Below are positions 6,981 to 55,095 of a stretch of DNA of 64,000 bases, one piece after another. Under the pieces are notes generated by a model. The model was not told the origin of the DNA, did not search any database, and was given only the letters and a program-made list of their open reading frames with translations. The DNA lies in the NCBI RefSeq assembly GCF_022846255.1, contig NZ_AP025682.1; one strand, 5' to 3'. A program made the translations under genes and the position numbers. The DNA is from Escherichia coli. Lineage in GTDB: Bacteria; Pseudomonadota; Gammaproteobacteria; Enterobacterales; Enterobacteriaceae. Position 1 is the stretch's first letter; the number at the start of each line of letters is the position of its first letter.

Positions 6981-7029
6981 CATCAGCGCGCACATTCATC
7001 ACATTCACCCATTAACTCACCCAGACACC

Positions 7030-12474: not shown

Positions 12475-13485
12475 TTACTCCGCCGTCTGTTCCGCAAAGA
12501 GCTGTAGCTGAATTTCGCCCGCTTCTTCCAGCTCACGGGCGATGCCCATGATTTCGCGGCGGATCTGTTCGATACGGCTAACCGGCACCGGACCCAGACG
12601 CGCGGTGATCGCTTCCAGTTGCTGCGCCTGACGTTTTGGCATTACCGCGTAAATCGAGCGGCGCAGCAGGGCTTCGGTGCCTTTCAGCGCCACCGCCCAG
12701 TCTTCCATCGGCACTTCGTCAAGCAGACGCCGACGCACTTCTTCGTTCTGGCGGCTGAGGATAAAGAAGTCGTACATCTCATCCTGGATCTGCCCCAACA
12801 CCTCTTCGTCGCGTTCGCGCATCTGGTCGAGGATCACCTGCTGATTGCCCTGGAAGCGGTTGACGATATCCGCCGCCTGTTTGATGCCTTTTACCTTCGA
12901 GCCATGTTCCGAAAGTACCGACAGGCCACGTTCAATCAGGCGGTCCAGCTCATCCACCACGTCGCGGTTGACGTCGTTGAGTTTCGCCACCCGATAGAGT
13001 ATTTCGTTTTGCACCGATTCGTTGAGATAAGAGAGCACCGCTGCCGAGATTTCCGGCGTCAGAAACGCGAGGAACACCGCCTGCAATTGCAGATGTTCTT
13101 CGGAAATCAGCATCGCCAGCTGGCGTGGTTCTACCCATTGCAGGCGCGCCATCCGCGAGCGGATCTCATCGCCATAGATGCCGTTGATCACGCTGCTGGC
13201 GATCTCGGTGCCCAGCGCCTTGTTAAGAATGCCCTGCAACATGGAGCGCGATGCGCCGTTGATCCCGCTCTGTTCGCGGAACTCATCAAAGAAGTTATTG
13301 ATCACCTTGCGCGCCATGCTGGTTTTGACGCCGGAAAGCCGCGCCATGTTTTCGCTCAGGCGCACCACTTCTTCGCGGCTGAGTTTTTGCATCACCGTCG
13401 CCGCCGCCTCTTCGCCCAGACACAGCAACAGGATCGCCGCCTGTTCCAGGTAGCTGTTGCTCTTATTTGTTGTCAATTCGCTCAT
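12475..13485 (-). CDS. lfiG: Flagellar motor switch protein FliG
   Basis: 336 aa; size, helical composition and position between fliF and fliH. Confidence 0.85.
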   Translation of the reverse strand: MSELTTNKSNSYLEQAAILLLCLGEEAAATVMQKLSREEVVRLSENMARLSGVKTSMARKVINNFFDEFREQSGINGASRSMLQGILNKALGTEIASSVINGIYGDEIRSRMARLQWVEPRQLAMLISEEHLQLQAVFLAFLTPEISAAVLSYLNESVQNEILYRVAKLNDVNRDVVDELDRLIERGLSVLSEHGSKVKGIKQAADIVNRFQGNQQVILDQMRERDEEVLGQIQDEMYDFFILSRQNEEVRRRLLDEVPMEDWAVALKGTEALLRRSIYAVMPKRQAQQLEAITARLGPVPVSRIEQIRREIMGIARELEEAGEIQLQLFAEQTAE

Positions 13486-19866: not shown

Positions 19867-20995
19867 CAGCAGCGAAGAAAAAACAGAGAAACCCTCGGCG
19901 CAAAAGCTGCGTAAAGCGCGTGAAGAGGGGCAGCTACCGCGCTCGAAGGATATGGGGCTGGCGGCGAGCCTGTTTGCAGCGTTTGTGGTGATCTCCAGTA
20001 GTTTTCCGTGGTATGCCGATTTTGTGCGCGAGAGTTTTATCAGCGTGCATCAGTACGCACAGGAGATTAATAACCCGCAGGTGATCGGTCAGTTTCTGCG
20101 CCATCACCTGTTAATTCTCGGCAAGTTTATCCTTACGTTGCTGCCGATGCCCGCCGCCGCACTGCTCTCCTCACTGGTGCCCGGCGGCTGGCTGTTTCTG
20201 CCGAAAAAAATCCTCCCGGATTTCAGCAAAATCAGCCCGTTAAAAGGCATTGGGCGACTGTTTTCCAGCGAACATCTGGCGGAAACGGGGAAGATGACAG
20301 TGAAGTCGGTGGTGGTGCTGGTAATGCTGTGGGTAAGCCTGCGCAATAACTTTGCCGCCTTTCTCGGCCTGCAGGCGCTGCCGTTCAAACTGGCGATGAA
20401 TGATGGATTATCGCTCTACGCCAGCGTGATGCGCAACTTTGTCATCCTGTTTATCTTCTTTGCGTTAATCGACGTGCCGCTGGCGAAAGCCCTGTTCACC
20501 AAAGGGCTGAAGATGACCAAGCAGGAGCTGAAAGAAGAGTACAAAAATCAGGAAGGCAAGCCGGAAGTGAAGGCGCGCGTGCGGCGGCTGCAACGGCAAC
20601 TGGCGATGGGGCAAATTCGCAAAGTGGTGCCGAAAGCCAACGTGGTGATCACCAACCCGACCCACTACGCCGTGGCGTTACAGTATGACTCATCACGTGC
20701 CGCCGCACCGTTTGTGGTGGCGAAAGGCACCGATGAAATCGCCCTCTATATTCGCCAGGTCGCCACTGAAAATCAGGTGGAAGTGGTGGAGTTCCCGCGA
20801 CTCGCGCGCTCGGTTTACTACACCACCCAGGTGAACCAGCAAATTCCGTTTCAGCTTTACCGGGCCATCGCCCACGTTCTGACCTACATCCTGCAAATGA
20901 AACACTGGCGCGAGGGCGCACAGCCGCGCCCGGCCCTGAACAGACATATTTCCATTCCCAAAGAGGTACTTAAACTGGATGGCGAAAACAACTAA
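19856..20995 (+). CDS. lfhB: Flagellar export switch protein FlhB
   Basis: 379 aa; N-terminus EKTEKPSAQKLRKAREEGQLPRSKD and the NPTH autocleavage motif (VVITNPTHYAVAL). Confidence 0.9.
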   Translation: MADSSSEEKTEKPSAQKLRKAREEGQLPRSKDMGLAASLFAAFVVISSSFPWYADFVRESFISVHQYAQEINNPQVIGQFLRHHLLILGKFILTLLPMPAAALLSSLVPGGWLFLPKKILPDFSKISPLKGIGRLFSSEHLAETGKMTVKSVVVLVMLWVSLRNNFAAFLGLQALPFKLAMNDGLSLYASVMRNFVILFIFFALIDVPLAKALFTKGLKMTKQELKEEYKNQEGKPEVKARVRRLQRQLAMGQIRKVVPKANVVITNPTHYAVALQYDSSRAAAPFVVAKGTDEIALYIRQVATENQVEVVEFPRLARSVYYTTQVNQQIPFQLYRAIAHVLTYILQMKHWREGAQPRPALNRHISIPKEVLKLDGENN

Positions 20996-23072
20996 ATCGT
21001 TCCTCGCGCCGCTGCGCGGCGGCAATCTCGGCGTGCCGTTGGTGATCCTGTGTATTCTGGCGATGGTTATTCTGCCGCTGCCGCCTGCGCTGCTGGATAT
21101 TCTGTTCACCTTCAACATTGTGCTGGCGGTGATGGTGCTGCTGGTGGCCGTGTCGGCGAAAAGGCCGCTGGAATTCAGCCTGTTCCCGACCATTTTGCTG
21201 ATCACCACCTTAATGCGTCTGACGCTTAACGTTGCTTCTACGCGCGTGGTGCTGCTACACGGGCATCTCGGCGCGGGCGCGGCGGGTAAGGTGATTGAGT
21301 CGTTTGGTCAGGTGGTGATTGGCGGCAACTTTGTCGTCGGTTTCGTGGTATTTATCATCCTGATGATCATCAACTTTATCGTCGTAACCAAGGGGGCCGA
21401 GCGTATTTCCGAGGTTTCTGCCCGCTTTACCCTGGACGCGATGCCCGGCAAACAGATGGCGATTGACGCCGATCTTAACGCCGGGTTGATCAACCAGACG
21501 CAGGCGCAAACCCGGCGTAAAGATGTCGCCAGCGAGGCCGATTTCTACGGCGCAATGGACGGGGCATCAAAATTTGTGCGCGGGGACGCCATCGCCGGGA
21601 TGATGATTCTGGCGATCAACCTGATCGGCGGCGTCTGTATCGGCATCTTCAAATACAACCTGAGCGCCGACGCCGCCTTCCAGCAATATGTGCTGATGAC
21701 TATCGGCGATGGGCTGGTGGCGCAAATCCCTTCCCTGCTGCTCTCCACCGCGGCGGCGATTATCGTCACCCGCGTCAGCGATAACGGTGATATCGCCCAT
21801 GACGTGCGTAATCAGTTGCTGGCAAGCCCGTCGGTTCTCTACACCGCCACTGGAATTATGTTCGTGCTGGCGGTGGTGCCGGGAATGCCGCATTTCCCGT
21901 TCCTGATGTTCAGCGCCCTGCTTGGTTTTACCGGCTGGCGGATGAGCAAGCGCCCGCAAGCGGCGGAGGCGGAAGAGAAAAGCCTCGAAACGCTAACCCG
22001 TACGATGACAGAAACCAGCGAGCAACAGGTCAGTTGGGAAACTATTCCGCTGATCGAACCTATCAGTTTAAGCCTCGGCTACAAACTGGTGGCGCTGGTG
22101 GATAAAGCGCAGGGCAACCCGCTCACCCAGCGTATTCGCGGCGTACGTCAGGTGATTTCCGACGGCAACGGCGTGCTGCTGCCGGAGATCCGTATTCGGG
22201 AAAACTTCCGTCTCAAGCCCAGCCAGTACGCCATTTTCATCAACGGCATTAAGGCTGATGAAGCGGATATTCCGGCGGATAAACTGATGGCCCTGCCCTC
22301 CAGCGAAACCTACGGCGAGATTGACGGCGTACTGGGGAATGACCCGGCATATGGGATGCCGGTCACCTGGATTCAGCCTGCGCAGAAAGCGAAGGCGCTG
22401 AATATGGGGTATCAGGTGATCGACAGCGCCAGCGTGATTGCCACCCATGTGAACAAGATTGTGCGCAGCTATATTCCTGACCTCTTTAACTATGACGATA
22501 TTACGCAGTTGCATAACCGCCTGTCGTCGATGGCACCGCGACTGGCGGAAGATTTGAGCGCGGCACTCAATTACAGCCAATTGCTGAAAGTGTACCGGGC
22601 GCTGCTGACCGAAGGCGTTTCCCTGCGCGATATCGTCACCATCGCCACCGTGCTGGTCGCCAGTAGTGCGGTGACCAAAGATCATATTCTGCTGGCGGCA
22701 GATGTGCGCCTGGCGCTGCGGCGCAGCATTACCCATCCGTTCGTTCGCAAGCAGGAGCTGACGGTGTATACGCTGAATAATGAGCTGGAAAATCTGCTGA
22801 CCAACGTGGTGAATCAGGCGCAACAGGCCGGCAAAGTGATGCTCGACAGCGTGCCAGTGGACCCGAATATGCTCAACCAGTTCCAGAGTACGATGCCGCA
22901 GGTAAAAGAGCAGATGAAAGCGGCGGGGAAAGATCCGGTGCTGCTGGTGCCTCCGCAGCTGCGCCCTTTGCTGGCGCGCTATGCAAGGTTGTTTGCGCCG
23001 GGGCTGCATGTGCTGTCGTATAACGAAGTGCCGGATGAGTTGGAGTTGAAGATAATGGGGGCGTTGAGTTGA
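20979..23072 (+). CDS. lfhA: Flagellar export gate protein FlhA
   Basis: 697 aa; FHxxK-type N-terminal TM region and large cytoplasmic domain. Confidence 0.9.
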   Translation: MAKTTKSFLAPLRGGNLGVPLVILCILAMVILPLPPALLDILFTFNIVLAVMVLLVAVSAKRPLEFSLFPTILLITTLMRLTLNVASTRVVLLHGHLGAGAAGKVIESFGQVVIGGNFVVGFVVFIILMIINFIVVTKGAERISEVSARFTLDAMPGKQMAIDADLNAGLINQTQAQTRRKDVASEADFYGAMDGASKFVRGDAIAGMMILAINLIGGVCIGIFKYNLSADAAFQQYVLMTIGDGLVAQIPSLLLSTAAAIIVTRVSDNGDIAHDVRNQLLASPSVLYTATGIMFVLAVVPGMPHFPFLMFSALLGFTGWRMSKRPQAAEAEEKSLETLTRTMTETSEQQVSWETIPLIEPISLSLGYKLVALVDKAQGNPLTQRIRGVRQVISDGNGVLLPEIRIRENFRLKPSQYAIFINGIKADEADIPADKLMALPSSETYGEIDGVLGNDPAYGMPVTWIQPAQKAKALNMGYQVIDSASVIATHVNKIVRSYIPDLFNYDDITQLHNRLSSMAPRLAEDLSAALNYSQLLKVYRALLTEGVSLRDIVTIATVLVASSAVTKDHILLAADVRLALRRSITHPFVRKQELTVYTLNNELENLLTNVVNQAQQAGKVMLDSVPVDPNMLNQFQSTMPQVKEQMKAAGKDPVLLVPPQLRPLLARYARLFAPGLHVLSYNEVPDELELKIMGALS

Positions 23073-30552: not shown

Positions 30553-31770
30553 AGAGTCAGGGTAAGACTACGAAAGCCCGCTCCCAGCAAGGACTGACGC
30601 CAGGTAGTTTCTGTCCATGGCTGCTTTTCGCATCTTACGTCTTAACCCTGCCTTGAATACATTATCATTCGTTAAAATATTAATAGCGATGTGCCGTATC
30701 CCTGAAAATAATTCTGCTGCATTTCCTCTTCTTATTTTGCAGTCGTCTTCATTCATTACCACGTCCAGACGCCAGTGCAGCTTATTCTCCACGTGCCAGT
30801 GGTTTCGGATTGCTGTGGCGAACTTCTCTGCGGTTAAATCAGCAGAACTGATATAATATCTGACCGTCATTTCTGGCTCTTTCTTTTGTTCTGCTATTAT
30901 TGACCGAAAGGAGACTGCCACGCATAATTTCTTCAGACCTTTCCATTCAAACATGAAATCAATAAGTTCATCAGGGACATCGCAAACAATGTGAAGACGG
31001 ATTTCTTCTCTGCCGTGACTTTTTTCACTAATTGCGTAACTGTCATGCTCTGGATTATTTAATTCTTTCAGTGGGAATTTTTCCTCAAAGGCTTTATTAA
31101 GCCGCCCCTGATTTCCTTTTACAGCGAATAAATAATCACCGCCCTGTTTTTGTATCTTCTCTGCGATATCTTTCTGGCAACCCATCGCATCAGTTGTGAT
31201 AATTTTTCCTTTAATATCCAACATGTTAAGAAGTTCATGGATAGCTGTGATCTCATTGGATTTCTCATCCGTCCTGATCTGTCCGATGACCAGACTGTGC
31301 ATTGTTGAGAACGCACTAATGACATGAATCGCTCCCCTGCGGCGACTCTTGTCATAAGAATGCCGGAGCGTTTTTCCATCAATTGCAATAACGTCTTTAT
31401 CATCTGAAGAATGGCAGTCACGCATCCAGTTAATAAAGCACTCGTGAAATTTTGCAGGACTGATACAGGATACAACTCTGGCAATGGTATCGTGAACAGG
31501 AATACCATTTTCAAAATCACCATATTGCTTCAAAAAATCGAGATGTGTTTCCCCAAAATCCTCTATATCTTCCCAGCCTTCTGCACCAGAAATAACGGCA
31601 CAAATAGTCAACAGTAGAATACCCGATAATTTATGTTCCACTTTCCAGGCTTGTCTGTAATCGGGGATAATAGAAATATGTTCCATCAATTTTTTAAGTT
31701 CCATTTTGTTCTACTTAATTATGTAAGGAGTATTTGATCATGTATACGCAATAAAAAACAGCTTCAGGTA
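30553..31770 (-). mobile_element. H-repeat (H-rpt) element, ISAs1-family, copy A (intact)
   Basis: 1214-bp unit directly repeated at 31767-32985; encodes a 378-aa DDE transposase-like H-repeat-associated protein. Confidence 0.8.
30568..31704 (-). CDS. H-repeat-associated protein / ISAs1-family transposase
   Basis: 378 aa, [27 protein letters not shown]..., resembles the YhhI/YdcC H-rpt protein family. Confidence 0.85.
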
Positions 31771-32985
31771 ACAGGGCAAGATTACGAAAGCCCGCTCCCC
31801 GCAAGGACTGACGCCAGATAGTTTCTGTCCATGGCTGCTTTTCGCATCTTACGTCTTAACCCTGCCTTGAATACCTTATCATTCGTCAAAATATTAATAG
31901 CGATGTGCCGTATCCCTGAAAATAATTCTGCTGCATTTCCTCTTCTTATTTTGCAGTCGTCTTCATTCATTACCACGTCCAGACGCCAGTGCAGCTTATT
32001 CTCCACGTGCCAGTGGTTTCGGATTGCTGTGGCGAACTTCTCTGCGGTTAAATCAGCAGAACTGATATAATATCTGACCGTCATTTCTGGCTATTTCTTT
32101 TGTTCTGCTATTATGGACCGAAAGGAGACTGCCACGCATAATTTCTTCAGTCCTTTCCATTCAAACGTGAAATCAATAAGTTCATCAGGGACATCGCAAA
32201 CAATATGAAGACGGATTTCTTCTCTGCCGTGACTTTTTTCACTAATTGCGTAACTGTCATGCTCTGGATTATTCAATTCTTTCAGCGGAAATTTTTCCTC
32301 GAAGGCTTTATTTAGCCGCCCCTGGTTTCCTTTTACAGCGAATAAATAATCACCTCCCTGTTTTTGTATCTTCTCTGCAATATCTTTCTGGCAACCCATC
32401 GCATCAGTTGTGATGATTTTTCCTTTAATATCCAGCATGTTAAGAAGTTCAGGGATAGCTGTAATTTCATTGGATTTCTCATCCGTCCTGATCTGTCCGA
32501 TGACCAGACTGTGCATTGTTGAGAACGCACTAATGACATGAATCGCTCCCCTGCGGCGACTCTTGTCATAAGAATGTCGGAGCGTTTTTCCATCAATTGC
32601 AATAACGTCTTTATCATCTGAAGAATGGCAGTCACGCATCCAGTTAATAAAGCACTCGTGAAATTTTGCAGGACTGATACAGGATACAACTCTGGCAATG
32701 GTATCGTGAACAGGAATACCATTTTCAAAATCACCATATTGCTTCAAAAAATCGAGATGTGTTTCCCCAAAATCCTCTATATCTTCCCAGCCTTCTGCAC
32801 CAGAAATAACGGCACAAATAGTCAACAGTAGAATATCCGATAATTTATGTTCCACTTTCCAGGCTTGTCTGTAATCGGGGATAATAGAAATATGTTCCAT
32901 CAATTTTTTAAGTACCATTTTGTTCTCCTTAATTATGTAAGGAGTATTTGATCATGTATAAGCAATAAAAAACAGCTTCAGGTAA
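31767..32985 (-). mobile_element. H-repeat element copy B (tandem direct repeat of copy A)
   Basis: Near-identical to copy A with a 1214-bp offset, flanking sequence included. Confidence 0.8.
31782..32918 (-). pseudogene. H-repeat-associated transposase gene disrupted by a nonsense mutation
   Basis: GAG to TAG change at 32091-32093 relative to copy A splits the ORF into 275-aa and 100-aa pieces. Confidence 0.8.
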
Positions 32986-33147
32986 TGAGGAATATCTCAA
33001 TTTTTAAACATAAAATGCGAATTATTTAGTACAAAAAAGCAGCGTTACGTGATCTTTCCCTGACTGTGTAGGAAAACAGGTTTCCAAGCCCTTCCGAACC
33101 ATTCATGCCTGCAAACAAAAGCAGCTGCGGCGGCACCGCACTACCAC

Positions 33148-33468
33148 TTACTGTGACGTTATGCGCCCCGGACCACCGGCAGCAAGCGACGCCGCCGCAT
33201 CCTGAACTGCACCAGCCATATCCGAGATCCCTGCTGCTGCAGCGGCAGCCTGCGCAGCAGCTACTGCTGCTTTAACCAGACCTGACGGTTCCGGCAACGC
33301 ACCAAACAGGTCCGCCGCTGCCTGTTCTGCCATCTCCTCGGCGGCACCAGATACATCGGTTACGGCTGAACCTGTGCTCATACCGCCACTTTCGCCAGCT
33401 ATTGGTGGTGTGGTGATGACGGGTCCACCGTTTCCAGCTGGTTTGTTACCCGTAGATACAAAACTCAT
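33148..33468 (-). CDS. Hypothetical Ala/Gly-rich small protein
   Basis: 106-aa ORF, low-complexity composition; coding status uncertain. Confidence 0.3.
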
Positions 33469-33492
33469 GATATTTATTCCTTTAATATCGGA

Positions 33493-34802: not shown

Positions 34803-34915
34803 CGCAGCGCATCCACATACCGCCCCTCGCTGTTCTGCTGCCACAACCAGCCCTGCCCCTGCTGCGCCTGCGTTAACATTTTTGCTAGCCAGCACGGTCA
34901 CGGCAGGCAATTCCA
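34803..34915 (-). repeat. Degenerate duplicate of the 3' end of tagF
   Basis: ~76 bp near-identical to 35897-35972, then a diverged related stretch; direct orientation. Confidence 0.75.
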
Positions 34916-34924
34916 TGACAGGTA

Positions 34925-35398
34925 CTACTCATCCGTACAACCCAGCCCCCGGCGCTGAACCACTTCACTGGCAAACGTAGCTCCGGTTTTTTTCATTATT
35001 CCTTTTTGTATTTTTTGCAGCGCGGGAAATGAGATTCTCCTGCATGAATCCTCTTCCCATATATCACCAGTTACAGGACTAACTGAAAATAGTCCCCACA
35101 CATCTGTCGCTCCGGCGGAAGGAGAATCATAACCTACCCCAAAACTAAAATACCCAGGATGATACAGGTTACCTTTTTTATCTTTCAGAGAACCGTCAAG
35201 AAAAAACCCAGACAATTCCACATTATATTTTTCATTTTTTAGTGAAAAAACCAATAATGCCTGCGCCTGTATTTCAGTAAGACCTGACTGGTTAACAGTC
35301 GTTAGATCAAACCGCGGCACATTCCTGATAAGAATTTCAGCACAACAATTCACGGACACGACCATGAAAAGCAATACTGATATTAATTTACAGGACAT
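34925..35398 (-). CDS. Secreted protein, candidate immunity protein for the GH73-like effector
   Basis: Signal peptide (MSCKLISVLLFMVVSVNC); overlaps the upstream effector-like gene. Confidence 0.5.
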   Translation of the reverse strand: MSCKLISVLLFMVVSVNCCAEILIRNVPRFDLTTVNQSGLTEIQAQALLVFSLKNEKYNVELSGFFLDGSLKDKKGNLYHPGYFSFGVGYDSPSAGATDVWGLFSVSPVTGDIWEEDSCRRISFPALQKIQKGIMKKTGATFASEVVQRRGLGCTDE

Positions 35399-35853
35399 GT
35401 TATTCTCCGCTTAACCATATTAATCACCCACACTAACTCACTAGCATAACCGGTATGGCCGCCATTACTGTTTTTACCTGAATTAAAACCAGAATCAATC
35501 AATGCCTGCGCAAATTGCTCCGGAGATTTTTTATTTCTGACCGCATTACCAAATCGGATTGCAAAGGACTTTCCGCTAGTTGAAAAAAAGGTATAAGTGG
35601 CAACCCACACTTGATTACTCCCCAGCGGGTGAACCTGTCCTGACTGTAAAGGTGCCGGACCATGCATGGAAAAGTAGTTATTGTATTCTGTCGCGATTCT
35701 ACCCTGCCCGTAAAAGGACTCCTTTGCAGCAAGCCCCAGGATATTTTCCACAGGCACATCAAGTTGCTTAGCGATTAATTCACATTCTTTCAGATATTGC
35801 TGTACAAACCTGACTGCACCAGTGTTATTACAGGCTTTATCATAAGACCCCAT
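35383..35853 (-). CDS. Glucosaminidase (GH73/FlgJ-like) domain protein, candidate T6SS peptidoglycan glycoside hydrolase effector
   Basis: LGLAAKESFYGQGRIATEYNNYFSMHG resembles the FlgJ/GH73 catalytic region; no signal peptide; small (156 aa). Confidence 0.55.
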   Translation of the reverse strand: MGSYDKACNNTGAVRFVQQYLKECELIAKQLDVPVENILGLAAKESFYGQGRIATEYNNYFSMHGPAPLQSGQVHPLGSNQVWVATYTFFSTSGKSFAIRFGNAVRNKKSPEQFAQALIDSGFNSGKNSNGGHTGYASELVWVINMVKRRITCPVN

Positions 35854-35880
35854 GATTCACTACTCCTTGTCTGATTATTT

Positions 35881-36651
35881 TTAATGCGGCCGGATATCCA
35901 GCCGCAACGCATCCACATACCGCCCCTCGCTGTTCTGCTGCCAGAACCAGCCCTGCCCCTGCTGCGCCTGCGTCAGCATTTTGTCCGGCCAGCCCGGCCA
36001 CGGCAGGTGGCGCACACCGGGCAGTTCCACTACCGGCACGTCCGGCAGGCCGGTGAGTTCCCGGCTACGCTGCGGTACACGTCGTAAGCCGCGTAGCCAC
36101 TGCGCCCAGCGCGGCCCCGGTCGCCACATCGCCCAGAGCTGGTCTGTCTGCTCCGCCAGTCGACCGCAGCGTTCTGTCTGTGGTGAGACATGAGCTGCCG
36201 TCAACTGCGCCAGCCAGTACAGCCAGCCCTGTGTGTCATCCAGGCTCTCTTCCAGCCATTCCCGCCCGACACGCTGGTAAATCACCAGTGGCCACGGCCT
36301 GCCCGTACTGTCACGCGAGGCGGTCAGGACCCCGGTCAGCCACTCATCGCGCCCGCCAATGGGGAGAAATCCCGGCGACAGCACAAAACTCCACGGCAAT
36401 GGGTGGTGCTCCGGTAGTGCCGTTTTCTCACGTGGTGACAGGTGCATCCAGCCGTCATTTGTTCCGGCCTTCGCAGCATCCGTTCCTTCCGGCAGAACAA
36501 TATGCCGTCCCTGTCCCAGCCACGTTTGCTGGTTCAGCCACGCCTGCCACACCTGCCCTTCGTTCGCGCTCACTCGCCAGCGCACATAGTCCCGCTGGTC
36601 CGGCAGTCTGCCGAACATCGCCGGGGCCGATATCTCTGCCCGGCGCATCAC
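35881..36651 (-). CDS. tagF: T6SS-associated protein TagF (DUF2094 family)
   Basis: N-terminal FGRLPDQRDYVRWR resembles the TagF GKLPxxGDFVxR signature; Trp-rich; follows tssM as in SPI-6-type clusters. Confidence 0.6.
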   Translation of the reverse strand: MMRRAEISAPAMFGRLPDQRDYVRWRVSANEGQVWQAWLNQQTWLGQGRHIVLPEGTDAAKAGTNDGWMHLSPREKTALPEHHPLPWSFVLSPGFLPIGGRDEWLTGVLTASRDSTGRPWPLVIYQRVGREWLEESLDDTQGWLYWLAQLTAAHVSPQTERCGRLAEQTDQLWAMWRPGPRWAQWLRGLRRVPQRSRELTGLPDVPVVELPGVRHLPWPGWPDKMLTQAQQGQGWFWQQNSEGRYVDALRLDIRPH

Positions 36652-36836: not shown

Positions 36837-37313
36837 TTAATTCAGTTCCCAGAACCAGATTTCCTTGCAGCTAAAATAGCAATGTGAATGACATATAGCA
36901 CCTGTGGTAGAAGGCTCAATAAGATCTATATGACCGCCACCGTAACCCGTAATTTTCCAGAAAAAGACCACTCCTCTTTTATTACTGGTGTCTGTTTTAA
37001 ATTTTTCTGAGTCACACCAGATAACTGGTCTTCCAAAAACATCAGCTCGGGAAAGCTGATCTGCCAGTAATTTCGCACCGGTTTCTATTTTCTTCCCTTT
37101 CCAGTCACCACTTTTGATCGTCAGTCGCCCGTTAAAGCTGACGCCTGATTTAATCAGCGCCAGACTCATACGTGTGGCACAGGTATTTACATAACCAGCA
37201 TTTTGCTGTTGCAGTGCTTCATAGTTATAACCCACTTCACTGTACAAAACATCACCATCAATCTGAACTGATGAGTAATGGTTTTTTTTAAGTGTGAAAA
37301 ATGAAGGTTTCAT
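36837..37313 (-). CDS. Tae4-like type VI amidase effector (papain-like Cys/His peptidoglycan amidase)
   Basis: AGYVNTCATRMSLAL (Cys) and GGGHIDLIEP (His) resemble the Tae4 catalytic motifs as I recall them; 158 aa, no signal peptide. Confidence 0.55.
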   Translation of the reverse strand: MKPSFFTLKKNHYSSVQIDGDVLYSEVGYNYEALQQQNAGYVNTCATRMSLALIKSGVSFNGRLTIKSGDWKGKKIETGAKLLADQLSRADVFGRPVIWCDSEKFKTDTSNKRGVVFFWKITGYGGGHIDLIEPSTTGAICHSHCYFSCKEIWFWELN

Positions 37314-38005
37314 TTATTATTTCCTTTATCACAGGAGTGTTTACTTAGTGCCTCAATAATAATATTTGCAGCCCGTTCATTCAGTTTATCTGACGTTTTT
37401 TTTCTGAAATACCAGTAAATAATCTCATCCAGTGTAACTGTTTTAATCGTTTTATAATCGCACCATGTTTTTCTTTCCGTGGCATCTTCTATACCCAAAA
37501 GATAGATTTTCGCATTAAGCCTATCCTGCCTGTTATCTGACTGCCAGAAGCGGAAAAAATCATCTCCGTTCAGATCGAACGCGCCAGAGGTCAGGTGTGA
37601 AACAGATGAATGCCGGGGAGATTTTTTTTCCGGTGATGCCATATCCGGGCAGGGAAACAGCCTGACCATCGCTTGTTCAATCAGAGTTGAAGCTCGCATA
37701 TTCATATCGTTAACCGACTGCTGATTAAGATATGTCAGTACCGATGAATAAAGTTCTATTTCATTAATCTTATTATATCCACACCAGGTTTTACTTTCTG
37801 TCGCATCACTCACACCAAGGACATACATCAGAACATTTTCTTTTTCCTGTGACGTTCCACGAGCATAAAATGACAAAAATTCCTGCGCACTGAGATTAAT
37901 ATAATCGGGGTCAATAGTTCCTGTGTTTTTTCTGATATCAGCAAAAACATTTCCTGACATGGCATATAACAAAAAAATAATAAAAAAACGCGTATATTGT
38001 TGCAT
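37310..38005 (-). CDS. Secreted tandem-repeat protein, candidate immunity protein (two ~100-aa repeats each with paired Cys)
   Basis: Signal peptide; internal duplication (VLGVSDATESKTWCGYNKI... / LLGIEDATERKTWCDYKTI...). Confidence 0.5.
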   Translation of the reverse strand: MQQYTRFFIIFLLYAMSGNVFADIRKNTGTIDPDYINLSAQEFLSFYARGTSQEKENVLMYVLGVSDATESKTWCGYNKINEIELYSSVLTYLNQQSVNDMNMRASTLIEQAMVRLFPCPDMASPEKKSPRHSSVSHLTSGAFDLNGDDFFRFWQSDNRQDRLNAKIYLLGIEDATERKTWCDYKTIKTVTLDEIIYWYFRKKTSDKLNERAANIIIEALSKHSCDKGNNK

Positions 38006-42445: not shown

Positions 42446-42901
42446 TCAAAATTCTCTGGATAGAATAATATAGCCATTGAATCTTACGGAACACTCATTT
42501 TCATTAATAAGGCCGGATGCAATAAAAACATCTTTCCCTCTGTCATTGTTAATATAGGTATATTTTGCCACAATAGACTTGGCATGATTTTCATAGTAGC
42601 TATCAAAATACGATTTTTCATCTAACATTGCCTTCTTATTTCTGGCTTTGTCCTTCTCATAATCAATCTTAGCCAGAGACTCTGCATAAAACTTAGACAC
42701 AGGAGAAACATCAAGAACTTCTACCCTTGTTTTATCTCTTAAAATAGTAGAAGAATTTATATTCAAATCACTTTTCATTGCATCAAATAACGACAACTCT
42801 ATTGAGGCTCCAACCGTAGCGCAACCATCATTTTGTGCATATGAAATTGCAGGTATGCCAGCTAACAGGCAGATTATTACCTTGAACATATTAGTCCTCA
42901 A
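42446..42901 (-). CDS. Secreted protein, candidate immunity protein for the L,D-transpeptidase-like effector
   Basis: Signal peptide (MFKVIICLLAGIPAISYA); overlaps the upstream effector gene. Confidence 0.5.
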   Translation of the reverse strand: MRTNMFKVIICLLAGIPAISYAQNDGCATVGASIELSLFDAMKSDLNINSSTILRDKTRVEVLDVSPVSKFYAESLAKIDYEKDKARNKKAMLDEKSYFDSYYENHAKSIVAKYTYINNDRGKDVFIASGLINENECSVRFNGYIILSREF

Positions 42902-43259
42902 CCACTAATATTTTATCAGTACTGGCAGCAATAACCTTGCGATAAGGTAAATCCAGAATTATACAGCCATCAGAGGCTTCTCCTGGATGGGCTGAACTCT
43001 CTCCGTGTATCATGAAACCGTCACGCCCGCACATTTGATTTTCGGGGTAAGGCGTGAGCCTCATCGTCCATGCTCTTGTTCTGGCATGAAAAAATGCAAG
43101 TCCAATTGTATATGTACCTCTTGGCAATGGTCCCTTATCTCTTACACACTCATTAACAGAGTCATCTTTAAAACCCGGTCTGCCAGAATATCTGGCATTG
43201 AACTGATAGCTACCATTTAAATAAAATGAACGTGCATTAATTTTGTATACCCAAGGCAT
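42891..43259 (-). CDS. YkuD/L,D-transpeptidase-fold protein, Tlde1-like candidate T6SS effector
   Basis: FMIHGESSAHPGEASDGCIIL matches the YkuD catalytic H...SxGC motif; between tssL and tssM. Confidence 0.6.
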   Translation of the reverse strand: MPWVYKINARSFYLNGSYQFNARYSGRPGFKDDSVNECVRDKGPLPRGTYTIGLAFFHARTRAWTMRLTPYPENQMCGRDGFMIHGESSAHPGEASDGCIILDLPYRKVIAASTDKILVVED

Positions 43260-43350
43260 TACACAATCTCCTTTTTGTTAAAAAATAATAGTCAGATCAG
43301 AACACCATATTTTATTGTTAGTTTTCTGACCTAACCATAGTCATATTAAT

Positions 43351-46611: not shown

Positions 46612-47103
46612 TTAAATTTCTTTGTTAGCTTTGAAATCGTAACCTGCCGTGATAGTGCCGCCGCTGCCGCCCTGCTGGTTCTGCACCACGTATTCCTGCT
46701 TCACGGTGCTGAAAGATAGTTCGACTCTCTCGCGGGAGGCGATCTCACCCTCCTTACTACCACTGGGGGAAACAACAGCCACAATCAGGTCAGTGAAGGT
46801 ATATTTGAGGTATTCCAGCGGATTGCCGCCTGCTTTGCGCATGACAAGGATGGACTTCGGAATATGCTTACCAGAGGCGCAGTATTTGAACAGGTTCGGG
46901 CTAGCGCGATCGATGTAATGTTCAAACTCCAGGTTAGTCACGGAGACTTTGCCGGATCCCAGACCGCTACCTGCGTGCATGGTGGACTCCTGGTGGATAT
47001 TCCAGCGCCAGCTCAGCACCTCAATTTCATTTTTATGTTTGTCATCCATTGACTCGCCGTCAATGCCGTCAATTTTCAGAAAAATGTCATAAGCCATTTT
47101 CAT
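46612..47103 (-). CDS. hcp: T6SS tube protein Hcp (TssD)
   Basis: 163 aa; N-terminus MAYDIFLKIDGIDGES... and overall Hcp pattern. Confidence 0.9.
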   Translation of the reverse strand: MKMAYDIFLKIDGIDGESMDDKHKNEIEVLSWRWNIHQESTMHAGSGLGSGKVSVTNLEFEHYIDRASPNLFKYCASGKHIPKSILVMRKAGGNPLEYLKYTFTDLIVAVVSPSGSKEGEIASRERVELSFSTVKQEYVVQNQQGGSGGTITAGYDFKANKEI

Positions 47104-47276
47104 TTCCTTATTAAGAATTACTTAAAATAATCCCTGGTTTATCTTCGCATATGAATTCAGGTAAACCATGGCCGTACAGAACCCCCTCTCCTTAATTTCA
47201 GAAGAATAGAAGGCTGTATAATTTCCGGTAATGAGATACCGGCACGTCATTAATTCACAAAATGAATGTATTACCT

Positions 47277-47729
47277 CTATTTACATGTCACAGATACCGA
47301 TGACTCTCCTGGTACCCGCTGCCCCGGCAAAGAAGATGCCTGGCACTGTGTCGCCAATGCAGGGACCGGTTGTGATAACCAAACCTGTCCATGGTTATAA
47401 ATACAGGAAACCCAGTAACGTTCACTATTCTGATTACTGGCCATTGTGGTATCCCATATTTGCCTGGTTTCACCCTTTATTGTCTCTGTCTCTGGTTTTA
47501 GATCCACCCGATTTTCAGGTTTTCCCTGCGACATCCCTACCCCGTCCAACCACAGACGGGGTTCATAGCGGGAAGATCTCTGCCACGATGCAGATATATC
47601 TGGCTCCAGTACTGTTGTTGAGGATTTTATATTGATAAACACGGGGCAACTGACTTCCCACGCAGTAACAAATTGTGAATAAAACAACATAAAACCCAAC
47701 AACAGAGAAAAAATAAAACGTGTCCCCAT
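47277..47729 (-). CDS. Secreted Cys-containing protein, candidate immunity protein
   Basis: Signal peptide (MGTRFIFSLLLGFMLFYSQFVTA); follows a small effector-like ORF. Confidence 0.45.
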   Translation of the reverse strand: MGTRFIFSLLLGFMLFYSQFVTAWEVSCPVFINIKSSTTVLEPDISASWQRSSRYEPRLWLDGVGMSQGKPENRVDLKPETETIKGETRQIWDTTMASNQNSERYWVSCIYNHGQVWLSQPVPALATQCQASSLPGQRVPGESSVSVTCK

Positions 47730-47741
47730 TGAATCTATCCT

Positions 47742-48149
47742 CTACTCAATAATATAAAAAGCTTCCGCATTATTACTGGCATCAGGATATGTTCCATCGC
47801 TGCGCATTCCACCTTTTCGGGAAATAGGGCGTGCAGAGACTTTCGTGGTTTTACCTGTCCACTGGTCCATAACATAAATATACTGACTATCCTGTTCCAG
47901 ATAGAAAGCGGCATGCTTATGCTCATTCTGCCTCGAGGGATACTTTCCGTTAACAAAAGTGGCAATTGCTGTTCCTCTGGGGATCGATTTATCCCCAAAA
48001 ACCTTTCGCCCCTGCTTCCAGGCTCCAGTATTCCCCACATGTGCATATACCTGAACTAAGAACACACATTCCTTTCTGTCTCCTGCCCCCGCCATTCCCA
48101 CCATGTCAGTGCCCTGCAATGAATCTACCAGTCCATAAACATATGCCAT
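47742..48149 (-). CDS. Small putative T6SS effector (unassigned family) between tssC and hcp
   Basis: 135 aa, no signal peptide, single Cys (ECVFLV) and His cluster (NEHKH); sits where SPI-6-type clusters carry tae/tai cassettes. Confidence 0.4.
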   Translation of the reverse strand: MAYVYGLVDSLQGTDMVGMAGAGDRKECVFLVQVYAHVGNTGAWKQGRKVFGDKSIPRGTAIATFVNGKYPSRQNEHKHAAFYLEQDSQYIYVMDQWTGKTTKVSARPISRKGGMRSDGTYPDASNNAEAFYIIE

Positions 48150-48199
48150 ATATCCCCCAGAGTATTACCCGGCATCATTCATTAAAATATTCATAAAAA

Positions 48200-49714
48200 T
48201 CAGGCATTACCCTGTTTTACTGACGGCAGTTTTGTCACCAGACGCAGTGATCCTGTTAACCCTTCAAGCTGAAAATGCGGGCGCAGGAAGAATTTGGCGT
48301 CGTAATAGCCCGGATTCCCCTCCACCTCTTCCACCACCACTTCAGCAGCTGCCAGCGGGCGACGAGCTTTGGTTTCCTGTGAGGAGTTCACCGGATCGGC
48401 ATCGACGTAGTTCATGATCCACTCATTGAGCCAGCGCTGCATATCTTCGCGCTCTTTGAACGAGCCGATCTTGTCGCGCACGATACATTTGAGGAAGTGC
48501 GCAAACCGTGAGCAGGCGAAAAGATATGGCAAACGAGCTGAGAGATTGGCGTTGGCCGTAGCATCCGGATCGTAATACTCCTGCGGTTTTTGTAGAGACT
48601 GCGCGCCAATAAAGGCGGCGTAATCAGAGTTTTTGCGGTGGATAAGTGGGATAAAACCATTTTTCGCCAGTTCAGCTTCACGACGGTCAGAGATGGCAAT
48701 TTCTGTCGGGCATTTCATATCCACGCCGCCGTCATCGGTCGGGAAGGTATGACAGGGCAGATTTTCCACCGCGCCACCAGATTCAACACCGCGGATCAAC
48801 GTACACCAACCGTAATGTTTGAAAGAGCGGTTGATATTTACACCCATTGCATAGGCGGCATTGCTCCAGACATATTTGCTGTGATCTGCGCCATCCGCAT
48901 CTTCTTCAAAATCAAACTCATCGACAGGGTTTGTTTTCGCACCATAAGGCAAACGGGAGAGAAAACGTGGCATCGTCAGGCCAATGTAGCGAGAATCCTC
49001 ACTTTTTCGCAGCGAGTTCCACGGTGCGTATTCGAGGTTTTGGGTCACAATTTTGGTCAGATCACGCGGGTTAGCCAGTTCCTGCCAGGAATCCATCTGC
49101 AACACTGATGGAGAGGCCCCAGCAATAAACGGCGCATGGGCTGAGGCTGCCACTTTGGCAATGGAGCCGAGCAGATCCACATCCGGTGGCGTGTGATCAA
49201 AATAATAATCCGCAATAATACAACCGTAAGGTTCTCCGCCTAACTGCCCATATTCGGCTTCATACAGCTTTTTGAACATGGGGCTTTGATCCCACGCGAT
49301 CCCTTTGTAACGCTTCATATTTTTCCGCAATTCATCCTTCGAAAGGTTCATAAAGCGGATTTTTAATTTTTCATCGGTTTCGGTGTTGTAAACCAAATGT
49401 TCCATCCCACGCCAGGAGGACTCCAGTTTCTGAAATTCCGGATGATTCAGGATTAGTTTGATCTGCTCAGTTAATTTGAAATCGATCTGCTCAATAATTG
49501 CAGCAATACTTTTATAAGCATCATCACTAACAGTGATCGTATTTGTCAGAGCCTGTTGGGCCAGCGTCTGAACTGCCGCCTCAACAGCCTTTGCAGCCTG
49601 AGGAGTCTTGGGACGGAAAGCTTTATCCAGCAGCGAATCAAATTCCGTTTCCTGATAGGCAGTGGTTTGCGCAGCAGAGAGGTCGCCAGTCGCCAGAAGA
49701 GTATCGTTTACCAT
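48200..49714 (-). CDS. tssC: T6SS contractile sheath large subunit TssC (VipB)
   Basis: 504 aa; conserved TssC layout downstream of tssB. Confidence 0.9.
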   Translation of the reverse strand: MVNDTLLATGDLSAAQTTAYQETEFDSLLDKAFRPKTPQAAKAVEAAVQTLAQQALTNTITVSDDAYKSIAAIIEQIDFKLTEQIKLILNHPEFQKLESSWRGMEHLVYNTETDEKLKIRFMNLSKDELRKNMKRYKGIAWDQSPMFKKLYEAEYGQLGGEPYGCIIADYYFDHTPPDVDLLGSIAKVAASAHAPFIAGASPSVLQMDSWQELANPRDLTKIVTQNLEYAPWNSLRKSEDSRYIGLTMPRFLSRLPYGAKTNPVDEFDFEEDADGADHSKYVWSNAAYAMGVNINRSFKHYGWCTLIRGVESGGAVENLPCHTFPTDDGGVDMKCPTEIAISDRREAELAKNGFIPLIHRKNSDYAAFIGAQSLQKPQEYYDPDATANANLSARLPYLFACSRFAHFLKCIVRDKIGSFKEREDMQRWLNEWIMNYVDADPVNSSQETKARRPLAAAEVVVEEVEGNPGYYDAKFFLRPHFQLEGLTGSLRLVTKLPSVKQGNA

Positions 49715-51214: not shown

Positions 51215-53848
51215 TTAATCCGTGTCAAAAATAATCTGTTCATCCTCATCAACACGAATGCGGATTTGCGTGATGGCCGTTTTCTCTGTCATCGCCTGCA
51301 GCCAATAACGGGACAGTTGTGGGAGGATATGTTGTTCGATATAGCCGATGAGCAAACGAGCGCCGGTTTCGTGCATCGGGCAGCGCGACACAATATGCGT
51401 AATCAGTTCATCGCCATACACCAGTGAAACGCCATGCTGCTCCGCCATCCGATCCATCAATCTGCCAAGATGCAGGCGGGCAATAACACCACGCGCGGTC
51501 TCATCCAGCGGTAAATAAGGAATAACCGTCACACGCCCCAGGAAAGCCGCCGGGAAGTGTTTACGTAACTCCGGCATTAACGCCTCTTTTAACCCTGCCG
51601 AATCGGGCATCAGCGCCGGATCCTCACAGAGCTGGCTGATAAGTTCCGCCCCCGCGTTAGTCGTCAACAACAGCGTGGTATTTTTGAAATCGATGTGGAC
51701 ACCTTCGCCATCTTCCATCGCCCCCTTATCAAACACCTGGAAGAACAGCTCGTGGACGTCGTGATGGGCTTTTTCAATTTCATCCAGCAATACCACGCTC
51801 CAGGGATGGCGGCGTACCGCTTCCGTCAACACGCCGCCTTCGCCATAGCCGACGTAGCCGGGCGGCGCGCCTTTCAGAGTGGAGACTGTGTGAGACTCTT
51901 GATACTCGCTCATGTTGATGGTGATCAGATTCTGTTCACCGCCATAGATTGCTTCTGCCAGTGCCAGCGCGGTCTCAGTCTTGCCTACTCCGGACGGCCC
52001 GGCCAGCAAAAAGACACCCACTGGCTTACGCGGGTCACCTAAACCCGCCCGCGCGGTCTGGATACGCTCGCCAATCTGCGCCAACGCATCCATCTGCCCG
52101 GTAACACGCTGCGCCAAACGGGTGGGCAATTCCAGTATCTGACTGGCTTCATCTTTCACCATCCGTCCGGCGGGAATACCGGTCCAGTCGGAGACAATCT
52201 CTGCCACCACGGTTGCACTGACTTCCGGGTACACGACGGGGTTTTCACCCTGCCAGCCTCTTAATGCCGTTTCTGCCTGTTGTAGAGTGATTTCGTCGCG
52301 CTCGCCAGGCGCTGCGCCGCGTTGCTCCTGTAAACTGCGAACCAACTCCAGTTCCTGCTGCCACCGCGCTTCGGTGTCAGAAAGATCGGCATTAAGCGAT
52401 ATAATCCGCGCCGTCAGTACATCGCCCCGCTCCGAGCGGATACCCATTTTTTCCTGCTTTAATAACAACTCCTGCTCCAGTTCGGCAGCGTTGAGCTGCT
52501 GGCGCAGATACTGGACTCTCGCAGGCGGGGTATGCAGCGACAGCGCTACACGGGCCGCCGCCGTATCCAGCAGGCTGATGGCCTTATCCGGTAGTTGCCG
52601 GGCCGGAATGTAACGGTGAGAAAGCTGTACAGCGGCGCGCACGGCCTCATCAAGAATCAGGACATCATGGTGTTCTTCAAGCGTGGTGACTAATCCGCGC
52701 ACCATCTCAACAGCCGCAACCTCTTCCGGCTCAGCAACCTGCAATACCTGAAAACGCCGGGTCAGCGCCGGATCCTTTTCGATATGGCGTTTGTACTCGC
52801 TCCAGGTGGTTGCGCCGATGGTGCGCAGAGTGCCACGCGCCAGCGCCGGTTTCAGCAGGTTGGCAGCATCCCCCGTACCGGATGTACCACCAGCGCCCAC
52901 CAGGGTGTGAACTTCATCAACAAAAAGTATCACCGGCTGCGCCGAGCGCGCGGCCTCTTCCAGCAAAGCTTTCAGGCGGGATTCAAATTCACCCTTCATG
53001 GACGCCCCAGCCAGCAGCGCTCCAACATCCAGTGACAGCAACCGCACGTTACGCAGTGAAGGCGGCACTTCCCCCCCGGCAATCGCCAGCGCGAATCCTT
53101 CCACCACTGCCGTTTTCCCGACCCCCGCCTCGCCGGTCAGCAGCGGATTGTTCTGGCGACGGCGCAGCAGAATATCCGTCATAGTACGGATCTCGTGTTC
53201 GCGTCCGGTGACCGGATCGATATTGCCTTCACGGGCCAGCGCAGTCATGTCCTGGCAGTATTTCGCCAGCGCGGATTTACTTCCGGTTGATTCGCCGGCA
53301 AAGACCTGGCTAGCTTCCCCCGGTACTGCAAAATTTAAATCCGAGCCGTCATAAGGTATTTCTGTTAATTCAGGAGATGAAGCGATTAAAGACGGAAGAA
53401 TATCTAATAGTTCATCTACCGGTAGCCCTGCCAATGGCGCACAGATATTTTTTAACACCCGATACAATTCTGGCGTGGTTAACCAGGCAAGTAATAACCA
53501 TCCACTACGAATTTTTTGATCACCAAAGCGGATACTTGCCAACATCCAGGCTTTTTCAACAGAAAGATCGATATGATGGGAAAAATCGTTAATTACACTC
53601 GCTCCGGCAGGCAATATATTCAATTGCTGAATTAACGCCTTCTCAACATCAGCAGATGTTATTTGATAATGTCGAAGCACATTGTGAATGTCATTCTCTG
53701 GTTGTTGTATTAACTGATGCAACCAATGCGTCAGTTCGACATAAGGATTAGCGCGTAATTTACAGAACGTCGTCGCAGATTCCAAAGATCTAAACAAAGA
53801 TTTGGTTAGCTTTCCATACAGTGCACTGCGCGAAACAGGAGTGTCCAT
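51215..53848 (-). CDS. clpV: T6SS AAA+ ATPase ClpV (TssH)
   Basis: 877 aa; two AAA+ modules with Walker A motifs GEAGVGKT and GPSGVGKT; ClpB-like without middle-domain expansion. Confidence 0.9.
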   Translation of the reverse strand: MDTPVSRSALYGKLTKSLFRSLESATTFCKLRANPYVELTHWLHQLIQQPENDIHNVLRHYQITSADVEKALIQQLNILPAGASVINDFSHHIDLSVEKAWMLASIRFGDQKIRSGWLLLAWLTTPELYRVLKNICAPLAGLPVDELLDILPSLIASSPELTEIPYDGSDLNFAVPGEASQVFAGESTGSKSALAKYCQDMTALAREGNIDPVTGREHEIRTMTDILLRRRQNNPLLTGEAGVGKTAVVEGFALAIAGGEVPPSLRNVRLLSLDVGALLAGASMKGEFESRLKALLEEAARSAQPVILFVDEVHTLVGAGGTSGTGDAANLLKPALARGTLRTIGATTWSEYKRHIEKDPALTRRFQVLQVAEPEEVAAVEMVRGLVTTLEEHHDVLILDEAVRAAVQLSHRYIPARQLPDKAISLLDTAAARVALSLHTPPARVQYLRQQLNAAELEQELLLKQEKMGIRSERGDVLTARIISLNADLSDTEARWQQELELVRSLQEQRGAAPGERDEITLQQAETALRGWQGENPVVYPEVSATVVAEIVSDWTGIPAGRMVKDEASQILELPTRLAQRVTGQMDALAQIGERIQTARAGLGDPRKPVGVFLLAGPSGVGKTETALALAEAIYGGEQNLITINMSEYQESHTVSTLKGAPPGYVGYGEGGVLTEAVRRHPWSVVLLDEIEKAHHDVHELFFQVFDKGAMEDGEGVHIDFKNTTLLLTTNAGAELISQLCEDPALMPDSAGLKEALMPELRKHFPAAFLGRVTVIPYLPLDETARGVIARLHLGRLMDRMAEQHGVSLVYGDELITHIVSRCPMHETGARLLIGYIEQHILPQLSRYWLQAMTEKTAITQIRIRVDEDEQIIFDTD

Positions 53849-54180
53849 CTGTTACACCTAATGATGTAAGAACATATAAATGATACATAAACATAACTGT
53901 ACCGATTAAAACTTCTAATTAATAGAATTATCAAAAAGGCCGAATGAAACAATGATGCATATCACAGAACACAATGTAATATAGCAGGTAGTATCTTTTT
54001 CATGGTGATATTCAATAGAGCAAGCCAATTTCATACATACAATGAATATATTAAATTAAAAATCGCCACTATATATTTCCGCGAAAACTTATATTGATAA
54101 AGTAAATTGATCAGCATTGCTTATCTAAAAATTTAGAAAACTTATTCTTTTGAAATAAACATTCTACACAGTGATACACA
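53849..54180. promoter_or_regulatory. AT-rich divergent promoter region between clpV and fha operons
   Basis: ~330-bp intergenic region, strongly AT-rich relative to flanking coding sequence, between the two divergent T6SS operons. Confidence 0.5.
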
Positions 54181-55095
54181 ATGAAACCAAATATTACGTG
54201 GGGACTCCAAAAAATACAGGCGCACGGGATCGCCGATAACACAATTTACGCGACTGAAGGAACCCAAATTATCTTCACCGTTACCTCACCCTGGATTCCT
54301 GTTTTTGAGGTGAATGATGATGTAAAGATTGCCCTCAGTCTGACCCGCCACGAAGAAGCATGGTGGATTATCAATCAGTCTACCGAATATTGCTGTACGG
54401 TAAACGACCAGATTGTGGAACCTCATCACCGTATGCGTCTGAATGAAGGCGACCTGATAGAATGGGGGTTATCTTCATGGTGCCTTGTGCACGGCAATCC
54501 ATCATCTCCGGACCTGAGCGCAGTAAAAACGACATCGCAGACTGCCACCATGTCGGAAACAATAACCGAATATCTGGATCTGGATTGGTTCAGGCAGCAG
54601 CATCTGACATCACAAAATCCATTCGATATCATTCCTGTTCATGGAGCCTCCTCCACTGGAGAAGATGCTAAAAAAGAAAATGCCCTGACTCGACTTTATC
54701 AGGAATACCGCGAGGCGTTGTTATCTCCTGAACAAGATCTTCATCGCCATGCTGATCCTTTTCCTTTTAACGAAGAGCCCTCCTCACAGGATCTGGATTC
54801 ATTGCGTGATCTGGTCACTGAAGCCGAGACATTGCAGGATATGGTCACTGGCGGGTTAAGCATTGACGCTATTCTCGATGTCCTGGACGCCACCGGCGAA
54901 GGGGAAACCGCCTGGCCTGCCGAAAAGACACCCCCAGATATCCTGCACCTGCTATCCCCGGAATGCGCACCGGAAACAGCGCATAACACCGTTCTACCCG
55001 ACCTGACACGCAAAGAGCATCGCATCATTGGCATTGACAGCCATTATCGGATAAACCCGGCACAACACGGAGAGATATCTCATGACAAACAATAA
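54181..55095 (+). CDS. FHA-domain T6SS accessory protein (Fha/TagH-like)
   Basis: 304 aa; first gene of the + operon; N-terminal region consistent with an FHA fold; assignment by position and composition. Confidence 0.55.
   Translation: MKPNITWGLQKIQAHGIADNTIYATEGTQIIFTVTSPWIPVFEVNDDVKIALSLTRHEEAWWIINQSTEYCCTVNDQIVEPHHRMRLNEGDLIEWGLSSWCLVHGNPSSPDLSAVKTTSQTATMSETITEYLDLDWFRQQHLTSQNPFDIIPVHGASSTGEDAKKENALTRLYQEYREALLSPEQDLHRHADPFPFNEEPSSQDLDSLRDLVTEAETLQDMVTGGLSIDAILDVLDATGEGETAWPAEKTPPDILHLLSPECAPETAHNTVLPDLTRKEHRIIGIDSHYRINPAQHGEISHDKQ

Follow-up and report, generated by a model that had tools for sequence, protein, structure and literature searches.

An AT-rich tssH-tagK control region with a conserved operator-like block in a SPI-6-type T6SS island of Escherichia coli

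Introduction

The closest known counterpart of the locus analyzed here is the gap between tssH (clpV/sciG) and tagK (sciF) in Salmonella SPI-6. In S. Typhimurium 14028s, this gap corresponds to the ChIP-exo interval H-NS_Region_036 (311285-312094, 810 bp), and H-NS occupancy at the tagKJ-tssEFGA/tssH promoter region falls ~8-fold inside macrophages (log2 fold change of -3.2) (PMC11770342). In that study, both genes are poorly expressed, with tagK at 0.5/0.7 TPM outside macrophages versus 10.4/3.0 inside, and tssH at 7.4/7.6 versus 25.5/18.1; the rise in expression accompanying H-NS loss is modest and non-significant (q = 0.088 and 0.19) (PMC11770342). Also in Salmonella, H-NS shifts the clpV promoter in EMSA, deletion of hns increases expression of clpV, hcp1, tae4, and vgrG, and bile salts and L-arginine induce T6SS genes by a c-di-GMP- and H-NS-dependent route (PMC10657408). 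Reviews concur that SPI-6 is silenced by H-NS. In EHEC O157:H7, T6SS genes including clpV z0254 are derepressed in a Δhns background (PMC5363993), and repression of the EAEC T6SS by Fur is listed in a review.

Here, we describe a 64,000-nt stretch of the genome of an Escherichia coli strain (contig NZ_AP025682.1, assembly GCF_022846255.1; hereafter, the window), in which two T6SS gene sets diverge from a short gap at 53849-54180. This gap shares with its SPI-6 counterpart the same flanking gene order, the divergent layout, and an aspV-type neighborhood, and the two are close in composition and length (27% GC and 332 bp in E. coli versus 26-27% GC and 367-368 bp in Salmonella). Both carry AAACAATGAT-N4-ATCA, a TAnnAT hexamer 36 nt later, and a tssH leader, within gaps that are 53% identical (172 of 327 aligned positions) and next to TagK proteins that are 55-57% identical. 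They differ in the right half-site of the shared block, which reads ATCAGG in Salmonella and ATCACA here, and in the 5′ coding part of tssH, which is 56% GC in Salmonella and makes the AT-rich patch narrower there than in E. coli. H-NS binding has been demonstrated at the Salmonella gap and is predicted for the E. coli gap.

Two other E. coli systems invite comparison. The T6SS of EHEC O157:H7 occupies the same slot (dnaQ-aspV ... yafV-ivy-fadE) and also contains an AT-rich divergent gap (tssB-hcp, 696 bp, 32.8% GC), but it is of another T6SS type with a different gene order, its clpV being placed inside a single long operon and the region having no annotated tagK. We considered whether the O157 aspV T6SS was the same cluster and rejected this identification, as the gene order differs and no nucleotide homology was detectable, a distant search matching just the 120 E. 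coli genomes that carry the present cluster (see below). The EAEC sci-1 promoter resembles the gap in being an AT-rich E. coli T6SS promoter under conditional repression. At sci-1, Fur sites overlap GATC sequences, producing a switch that combines Fur with Dam methylation. The gap differs in that it has no Fur box above chance, its only GATC (at 54109) lies away from the conserved block, and the gene organization is not that of sci-1.

Results

The gap at 53849-54180, defined by ORF boundaries and composition and assigned to neither strand, is a divergent intergenic control region of 332 bp, and the interval first proposed for it is precisely the space between tssH/clpV on the minus strand and the next ORF on the plus strand. 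tssH (51215-53848; 877 aa; Pfam AAA_2, AAA_lid_9, and ClpB_D2-small) heads the leftward T6SS gene set, and conservation of the TssH start, MDTPVSRSALYGKL, in every orthologue places the left boundary of the gap at 53849. The right-hand neighbor had been named fha in the original prediction. It is instead full-length TagK (54181-55095, plus strand; 304 aa), which matches the NCBIfam TagK equivalog NF033418 with E = 1.4e-166, and it is not Fha/TagH. Its N-terminus may be remotely FHA-like: the match to Pfam FHA over residues 54-96 is sub-threshold (E = 0.0013; 19.6 bits, where 20.7 are required), and profile matches to FHA proteins in the PDB are marginal (E = 0.16-0.7). tagK is the first gene of a tagK-tagJ(ImpE)-tssE-tssF-tssG-tssA operon that extends to 60351, with ORF ends that overlap or nearly abut. 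A 1.2-kb query across the gap (window 53400-54600) is 100% identical in six complete E. coli genomes, and the RefSeq annotation of a strain identical over this query names the flanking genes tssH and tagK. Nowhere else in the T6SS cluster do genes diverge: those on the minus strand run outward from tssH, and this layout demands two opposed promoters within the gap.

The composition of the gap is extreme for its surroundings. At 27.1% GC, it is indeed far more AT-rich than coding sequence, as had been claimed, the flanking T6SS core genes being 58-61% GC; a GC-content scan, proposed as a check on the original prediction, put the window as a whole at 52.8%. Segments of 332 nt as GC-poor as the gap make up only 0.04% of those in the window, and the window-wide minimum for this length (26.2%) is at 53864-54195, almost on the gap itself. 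We took as reference the 40 annotated intergenic regions measuring 60 bp or more in ~76 kb of a strain that matches the T6SS part of the window at 99.7% identity; among these, the gap ranks second lowest in GC and lowest among those longer than 100 bp, ~2 sd under the local intergenic mean of 42.1% (sd 7.4). Runs of A/T tracts, by contrast, did not hold up as a feature in their own right: the gap has eight tracts of at least 4 nt versus a shuffle mean of 8.0, which is what composition alone gives. There is no A-tract excess over shuffles of the same composition, no 10-11 bp phasing of AA/TT in the gap, and no curvature signal beyond base composition. A repeat search returned short imperfect AT-rich repeats, none of them compelling.

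The AT-rich patch does include the gap, as originally described, but it is wider than stated, as ~550 bp of the 5′ coding part of tssH (53300-53848, minus strand) is ~40% GC, with a 100-nt GC profile of 0.37-0.45. This segment likely extends the H-NS-prone patch. In the Escherichia lineage, tssH codons 1-200 (53249-53848) have a GC3 of 0.32-0.42, after which there is a sharp shift to 0.54-0.70, the rest of tssH lying at 0.5-0.7. The same 200 codons in Salmonella have a GC3 of 0.54-0.70 and encode protein that is 60-84% identical, and the step in Escherichia suggests either a recombination breakpoint or a lineage-specific AT enrichment that widened the H-NS-prone patch.

The cluster in which the gap is embedded is an accessory, SPI-6-type T6SS island, as seen from its place beside tRNA-Asp, its presence in 120 of 5,426 complete E. 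coli genomes, and its atypical composition. It adjoins tRNA-Asp between yafV/ivy/fadE and dnaQ, is chromosomal in each of the 120 genomes, and matches Salmonella SPI-6 in gene order and in its Tae4/Tai4, Tlde1, and STY0301-family cargo. The T6SS core genes are GC-rich, and the low-GC pattern of foreign DNA is limited to the control region and the cargo genes. Within the GC-rich cluster, AT-rich pockets of ~39-43% GC lie at 36837-38005, 42446-43300, and 47100-48200, where they coincide with the Tae4/Tai4 amidase-immunity pair, a protein with a Tlde1 domain, and STY0301/BPSL0067-family genes together with short adjacent gaps. By analogy to the eight H-NS regions mapped in Salmonella SPI-6, these pockets are likely to be further H-NS targets.

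Elsewhere, the window differs from strain 2014C-3338. Two directly abutting copies of ISEc1 (ISAs1 family) occupy 30558-31771 and 31772-33063, the first with an intact 378-aa transposase ORF and the second with a 275-aa ORF only, and they stand where strain 2014C-3338 has the bulk of vgrG followed by Rhs/DcrB cargo. A further ~1 kb at 34908-35896, bordered by a duplicated segment of ~110 bp, is missing from that strain; its two ORFs (34925-35398 and 35383-35853; 157 and 156 aa), which overlap, have no NCBIfam match and may encode an additional effector with its immunity protein. The arrangement of the window at 29.5-37 kb has no match among the complete E. coli genomes of the collection. At the far end (1-23072), the window carries genes of a second flagellar system of the lateral, Flag-2 type, including FliI (10428-11768), FliF (13463-15109), and FlhA (20979-23072), with an 838-aa glycosyltransferase-like ORF among them (6958-9474); the equivalent region of 2014C-3338 is reduced to lafU and a partial flhA remnant.

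The insertion sequences bear on whether the composition of the gap has any regulatory meaning in this strain. They leave a vgrG remnant of ~137 N-terminal codons (33060-33470), and with vgrG so truncated the T6SS may be decaying or non-functional here, in which case its regulation could be moot. One could then attribute the AT-richness to mutation under relaxed constraint in a long non-coding spacer of an island that is decaying, in keeping with the A-tract content being as composition predicts and with the poor conservation and many indels of the 185 bp nearest tagK. We consider this explanation very unlikely. The other 12 core T6SS genes are intact ORFs in the window, an 851-bp query comprising the gap and coding flanks is 96.6-100% identical across the 120 E. 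coli genomes, and low GC and short conserved elements persist in the gaps of other genera, as described next.

We compared the gap with those of 14 related loci, six of which came from a scan of the collection with TagK patterns and the rest from exact-protein look-ups. TagK homologues are 75-95% identical within Escherichia and 55-58% identical in Citrobacter, Enterobacter, and Salmonella, and all four genera share the synteny tssB...tssH <-> tagK-ImpE(TagJ)-tssE-tssF-tssG. In 14 of 14 loci, a gap of 330-423 bp and 23-30% GC precedes tagK, between flanks of 52-61% GC except in one distant low-GC lineage (L016; 41-42%). Its sequence is poorly conserved, with a mean column identity of 52%. That the gaps remain at 23-30% GC in every genus at this level of identity indicates that low GC was maintained while the sequence turned over, which, together with a GC content well under the intergenic mean, runs against composition set by decay.

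Three islands of conservation stand out from this background: the tssH leader, a 22-bp block, and a TAnnAT hexamer. All three are shared in the 11 aligned gaps and are missing only in L016, the most distant lineage (TagK 30% identical). The tssH leader (53849-53893, minus strand), as read from the sequence, includes a Shine-Dalgarno AGGTG (53855-53859) 6 nt before the ATG; the leader is 0.69 identical between genera, with columns T2, T4-A6, and C9-C10 invariant. The tagK-proximal spacer (53995-54180, plus strand) is ~23-31% GC, indel-rich, and only 0.41-0.55 identical, and is a putative long tagK leader and/or H-NS platform. At one related locus (L015; metagenome contig ENA ERZ17914490, 1-3000), an Rhs-repeat protein lies upstream of the gap where tssH is expected, while the gap keeps its first ~106 bp and the conserved block, suggesting a rearrangement on the tssH side.

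The best-conserved element is the block at 53947-53968 (22 bp, assigned to neither strand), AAACAATGATGCATATCACAGA, a candidate regulator site with the pattern AAACAATGAT-N4-ATCA. It contains a palindrome, TGAT-N4-ATCA, at 53953-53964 with its center at 53958.5. In 11 orthologues, nine consecutive columns (AAACAATGA) and the ATCA are invariant, and the between-genus identity of the block is 0.90 versus 0.41-0.63 around it. Conservation of this kind suggests that the block binds a regulator, and, like that of the hexamer (0.86), is hard to reconcile with a spacer drifting under decay. In 12 of 13 loci, 104-108 nt separate the block from the tssH ATG, the exception being Citrobacter koseri, in which 30 nt are inserted nearer to tssH; the distance of the block to the tagK ATG, in comparison, varies from 226 to 315 nt. 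The fixed distance to tssH raises the possibility that the block serves both promoters. The extended pattern is found once in the whole window, and nothing points to a regulon inside the cluster. The Enterobacter, Citrobacter, and Salmonella versions of the block contain GATC (ACAGATCAC), a potential Dam methylation site in the putative operator, whereas all Escherichia versions read GCATATCAC at 53957-53962 and are without GATC.

An ATG at 53953, within the block, opens a 10-codon ORF (MMHITEHNVI), and the orthologous ORFs begin MIQIT..., which allows the idea that the gap conceals a small gene, such as a leader peptide, or a structured RNA, such as an sRNA. This is the least probable of the explanations that we considered. 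The ORF ranges from 6 to more than 40 codons between genera, has no Shine-Dalgarno sequence, and ceases to be conserved after ~6 codons, and we rejected it as a gene because it is not conserved as coding sequence. With regard to RNA, a search of Rfam over 53300-54700 at E ≤ 1 found no match in the gap, the sole hit being a chance snoRNA inside tssH; a terminator scan of the gap found no terminator-like site; and the putative tagK leader folds no better than shuffles (z = -0.05).

Downstream of the block lies a -10-like hexamer, TAGTAT (53989-53994, plus strand), which reads TAATAT or TAGGAT in other genera. Each of the 13 orthologues with the block has a TAnnAT exactly 36 nt after the TGAT and zero indels between the two, and columns T141, A142, A145, and T146 of the hexamer are invariant in the 11 aligned gaps. 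There is no TTGACA-like sequence at the -35 position upstream of the hexamer. Scans for sigma-70 promoters returned nothing inside the gap with a consensus and only weak, non-conserved candidates with a weight matrix (the best at ~7 bits), and the lack of a good sigma-70 promoter suggests activator dependence. At class II promoters, the activator site is canonically centered at -41.5, and 29.5 nt separate its center from the hexamer. In the gap, the palindrome center precedes the hexamer by 30.5 nt, and this spacing, within 1 bp of class II geometry, predicts a tagK start at ~54000-54001 and an unstructured leader of ~180 nt. For tssH, weak start candidates lie near 53898 or 53873. The block and hexamer, with no -35, thus look like an activator-dependent, class II-like promoter facing tagK, an assignment we infer from a hexamer of a kind that turns up often in DNA as AT-rich as this.

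The gap shares with class II CRP/FNR promoters the TGAT-N4-ATCA core, a -10-like hexamer at fixed distance, and the lack of a recognizable -35, but the flanks of its half-sites fit neither CRP nor FNR cleanly. We asked how well the block would serve as a CRP- or FNR-family site, through which the baseplate operon would respond to carbon source or oxygen and the bound protein would act as an anti-silencer against H-NS. The core is common to the FNR (TTGAT-N4-ATCAA, 8/10) and CRP (TGTGAT-N4-ATCACA) consensus sequences, the Escherichia, Enterobacter, and C. koseri blocks match CRP at 10 of 12 positions and are the best CRP-core matches in their gaps (P = 0.005-0.045 versus shuffles), and the nearly canonical -41.5 geometry is what such a site would have. 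Against this, CRP cores with two mismatches occur across the window at chance (20 found, 24 expected), the Salmonella block (CTGAT) is a poor CRP fit at 8 of 12, and the FNR core in the gap scores as shuffled sequence does. At the discriminating flank position, the left side has A and the right side G or C, the T preferred by FNR never occurring, and the invariant run AAACAATGA reaches past the CRP/FNR half-site. We found no literature linking CRP or FNR to a SPI-6-type T6SS, and a search for SsrB or sciF/sciG promoter data returned nothing usable. We regard a CRP- or FNR-family site as rather unlikely.

Iron presents a different candidate signal. Reviews state that Fur directly binds the S. 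Typhimurium clpV promoter and that fur deletion raises clpV, and the block includes AATGATA, the core of the Fur consensus, with 10-11 of 19 positions matching. Iron could then be the dominant signal, with Fur binding the gap to repress tssH, possibly at the block itself, and with H-NS secondary or indirect. The sequences of the gaps speak against such a site, as the 19-bp Fur consensus is matched at no more than 11-14 of 19 positions, a level that is shuffle-like in most orthologues (P = 0.05-0.99), and where these matches fall is not conserved; the best match to the Fur box GATAATGATAATCATTATC in the window gap is 13 of 19 at 53914-53932 (P = 0.34 versus shuffles). In Salmonella, moreover, c-di-GMP induction survives in Δfur and is lost in Δhns (PMC10657408). 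Dominance of Fur at this gap therefore seems to us rather unlikely.

The original prediction that the gap is an H-NS-silenced, horizontally acquired promoter is supported by orthology. In its favor are the low GC, the accessory nature of the island, and the binding of H-NS to the Salmonella orthologue; what the gap does not offer is an H-NS motif beyond composition, the best match to the high-affinity motif TCGATAAATT being 8 of 10, the same as in shuffles (P = 0.69).

Discussion

The 53849-54180 gap is probably the shared control region of a SPI-6-type island, silenced by H-NS and containing the promoters of tssH and of the tagK operon together with an embedded block of the activator type. 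Silencing by H-NS is well supported because the Salmonella orthologue is both bound and silenced by H-NS, and we infer from this analogy that the E. coli gap would likewise be bound and that its genes would be derepressed as in Salmonella. In this respect, the gap represents in E. coli a T6SS control region already known from Salmonella to be silenced by H-NS, and it is real but largely ordinary.

How such a region might operate can be outlined from its architecture. The extreme AT-richness of the gap and of the first ~550 bp of tssH would provide a favored loading site for H-NS, and H-NS filaments across the gap could occlude or trap RNA polymerase, leaving both operons near-silent in standard growth. 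Expression would then depend on signals able either to loosen the hold of H-NS or to bring in an activator. The gap would carry a leftward promoter for the tssH unit and a rightward promoter for the tagK-tagJ-tssEFGA operon, the latter predicted to depend on an activator bound to the TGAT-N4-ATCA block ~42 bp upstream of the predicted start, and the same block-binding protein could also affect the tssH promoter. We speculate that AAACAATGAT-N4-ATCA may be the operator of a so far unreported activator, of the CRP/FNR family or another global regulator, positioned near -42 relative to the tagK promoter and near -60 relative to a tssH promoter, and serving as a conserved anti-silencing switch by which a gut cue, for instance oxygen or carbon status, frees all SPI-6-type T6SSs of the Enterobacteriaceae from H-NS; as a complete proposal, we hold this to be unlikely.

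Much of what we describe is otherwise textbook xenogeneic silencing and conceptually adds little, the conserved operator-like block and its fixed-distance hexamer being a modest and testable addition. Silencing by H-NS would explain why this rare E. coli T6SS would be silent in the laboratory, and switching it on would call for relieving H-NS or supplying whatever binds the conserved block. More broadly, the block-hexamer footprint offers a handle on the unmapped promoters of SPI-6-type systems in Salmonella, Enterobacter, Citrobacter, and some Escherichia.
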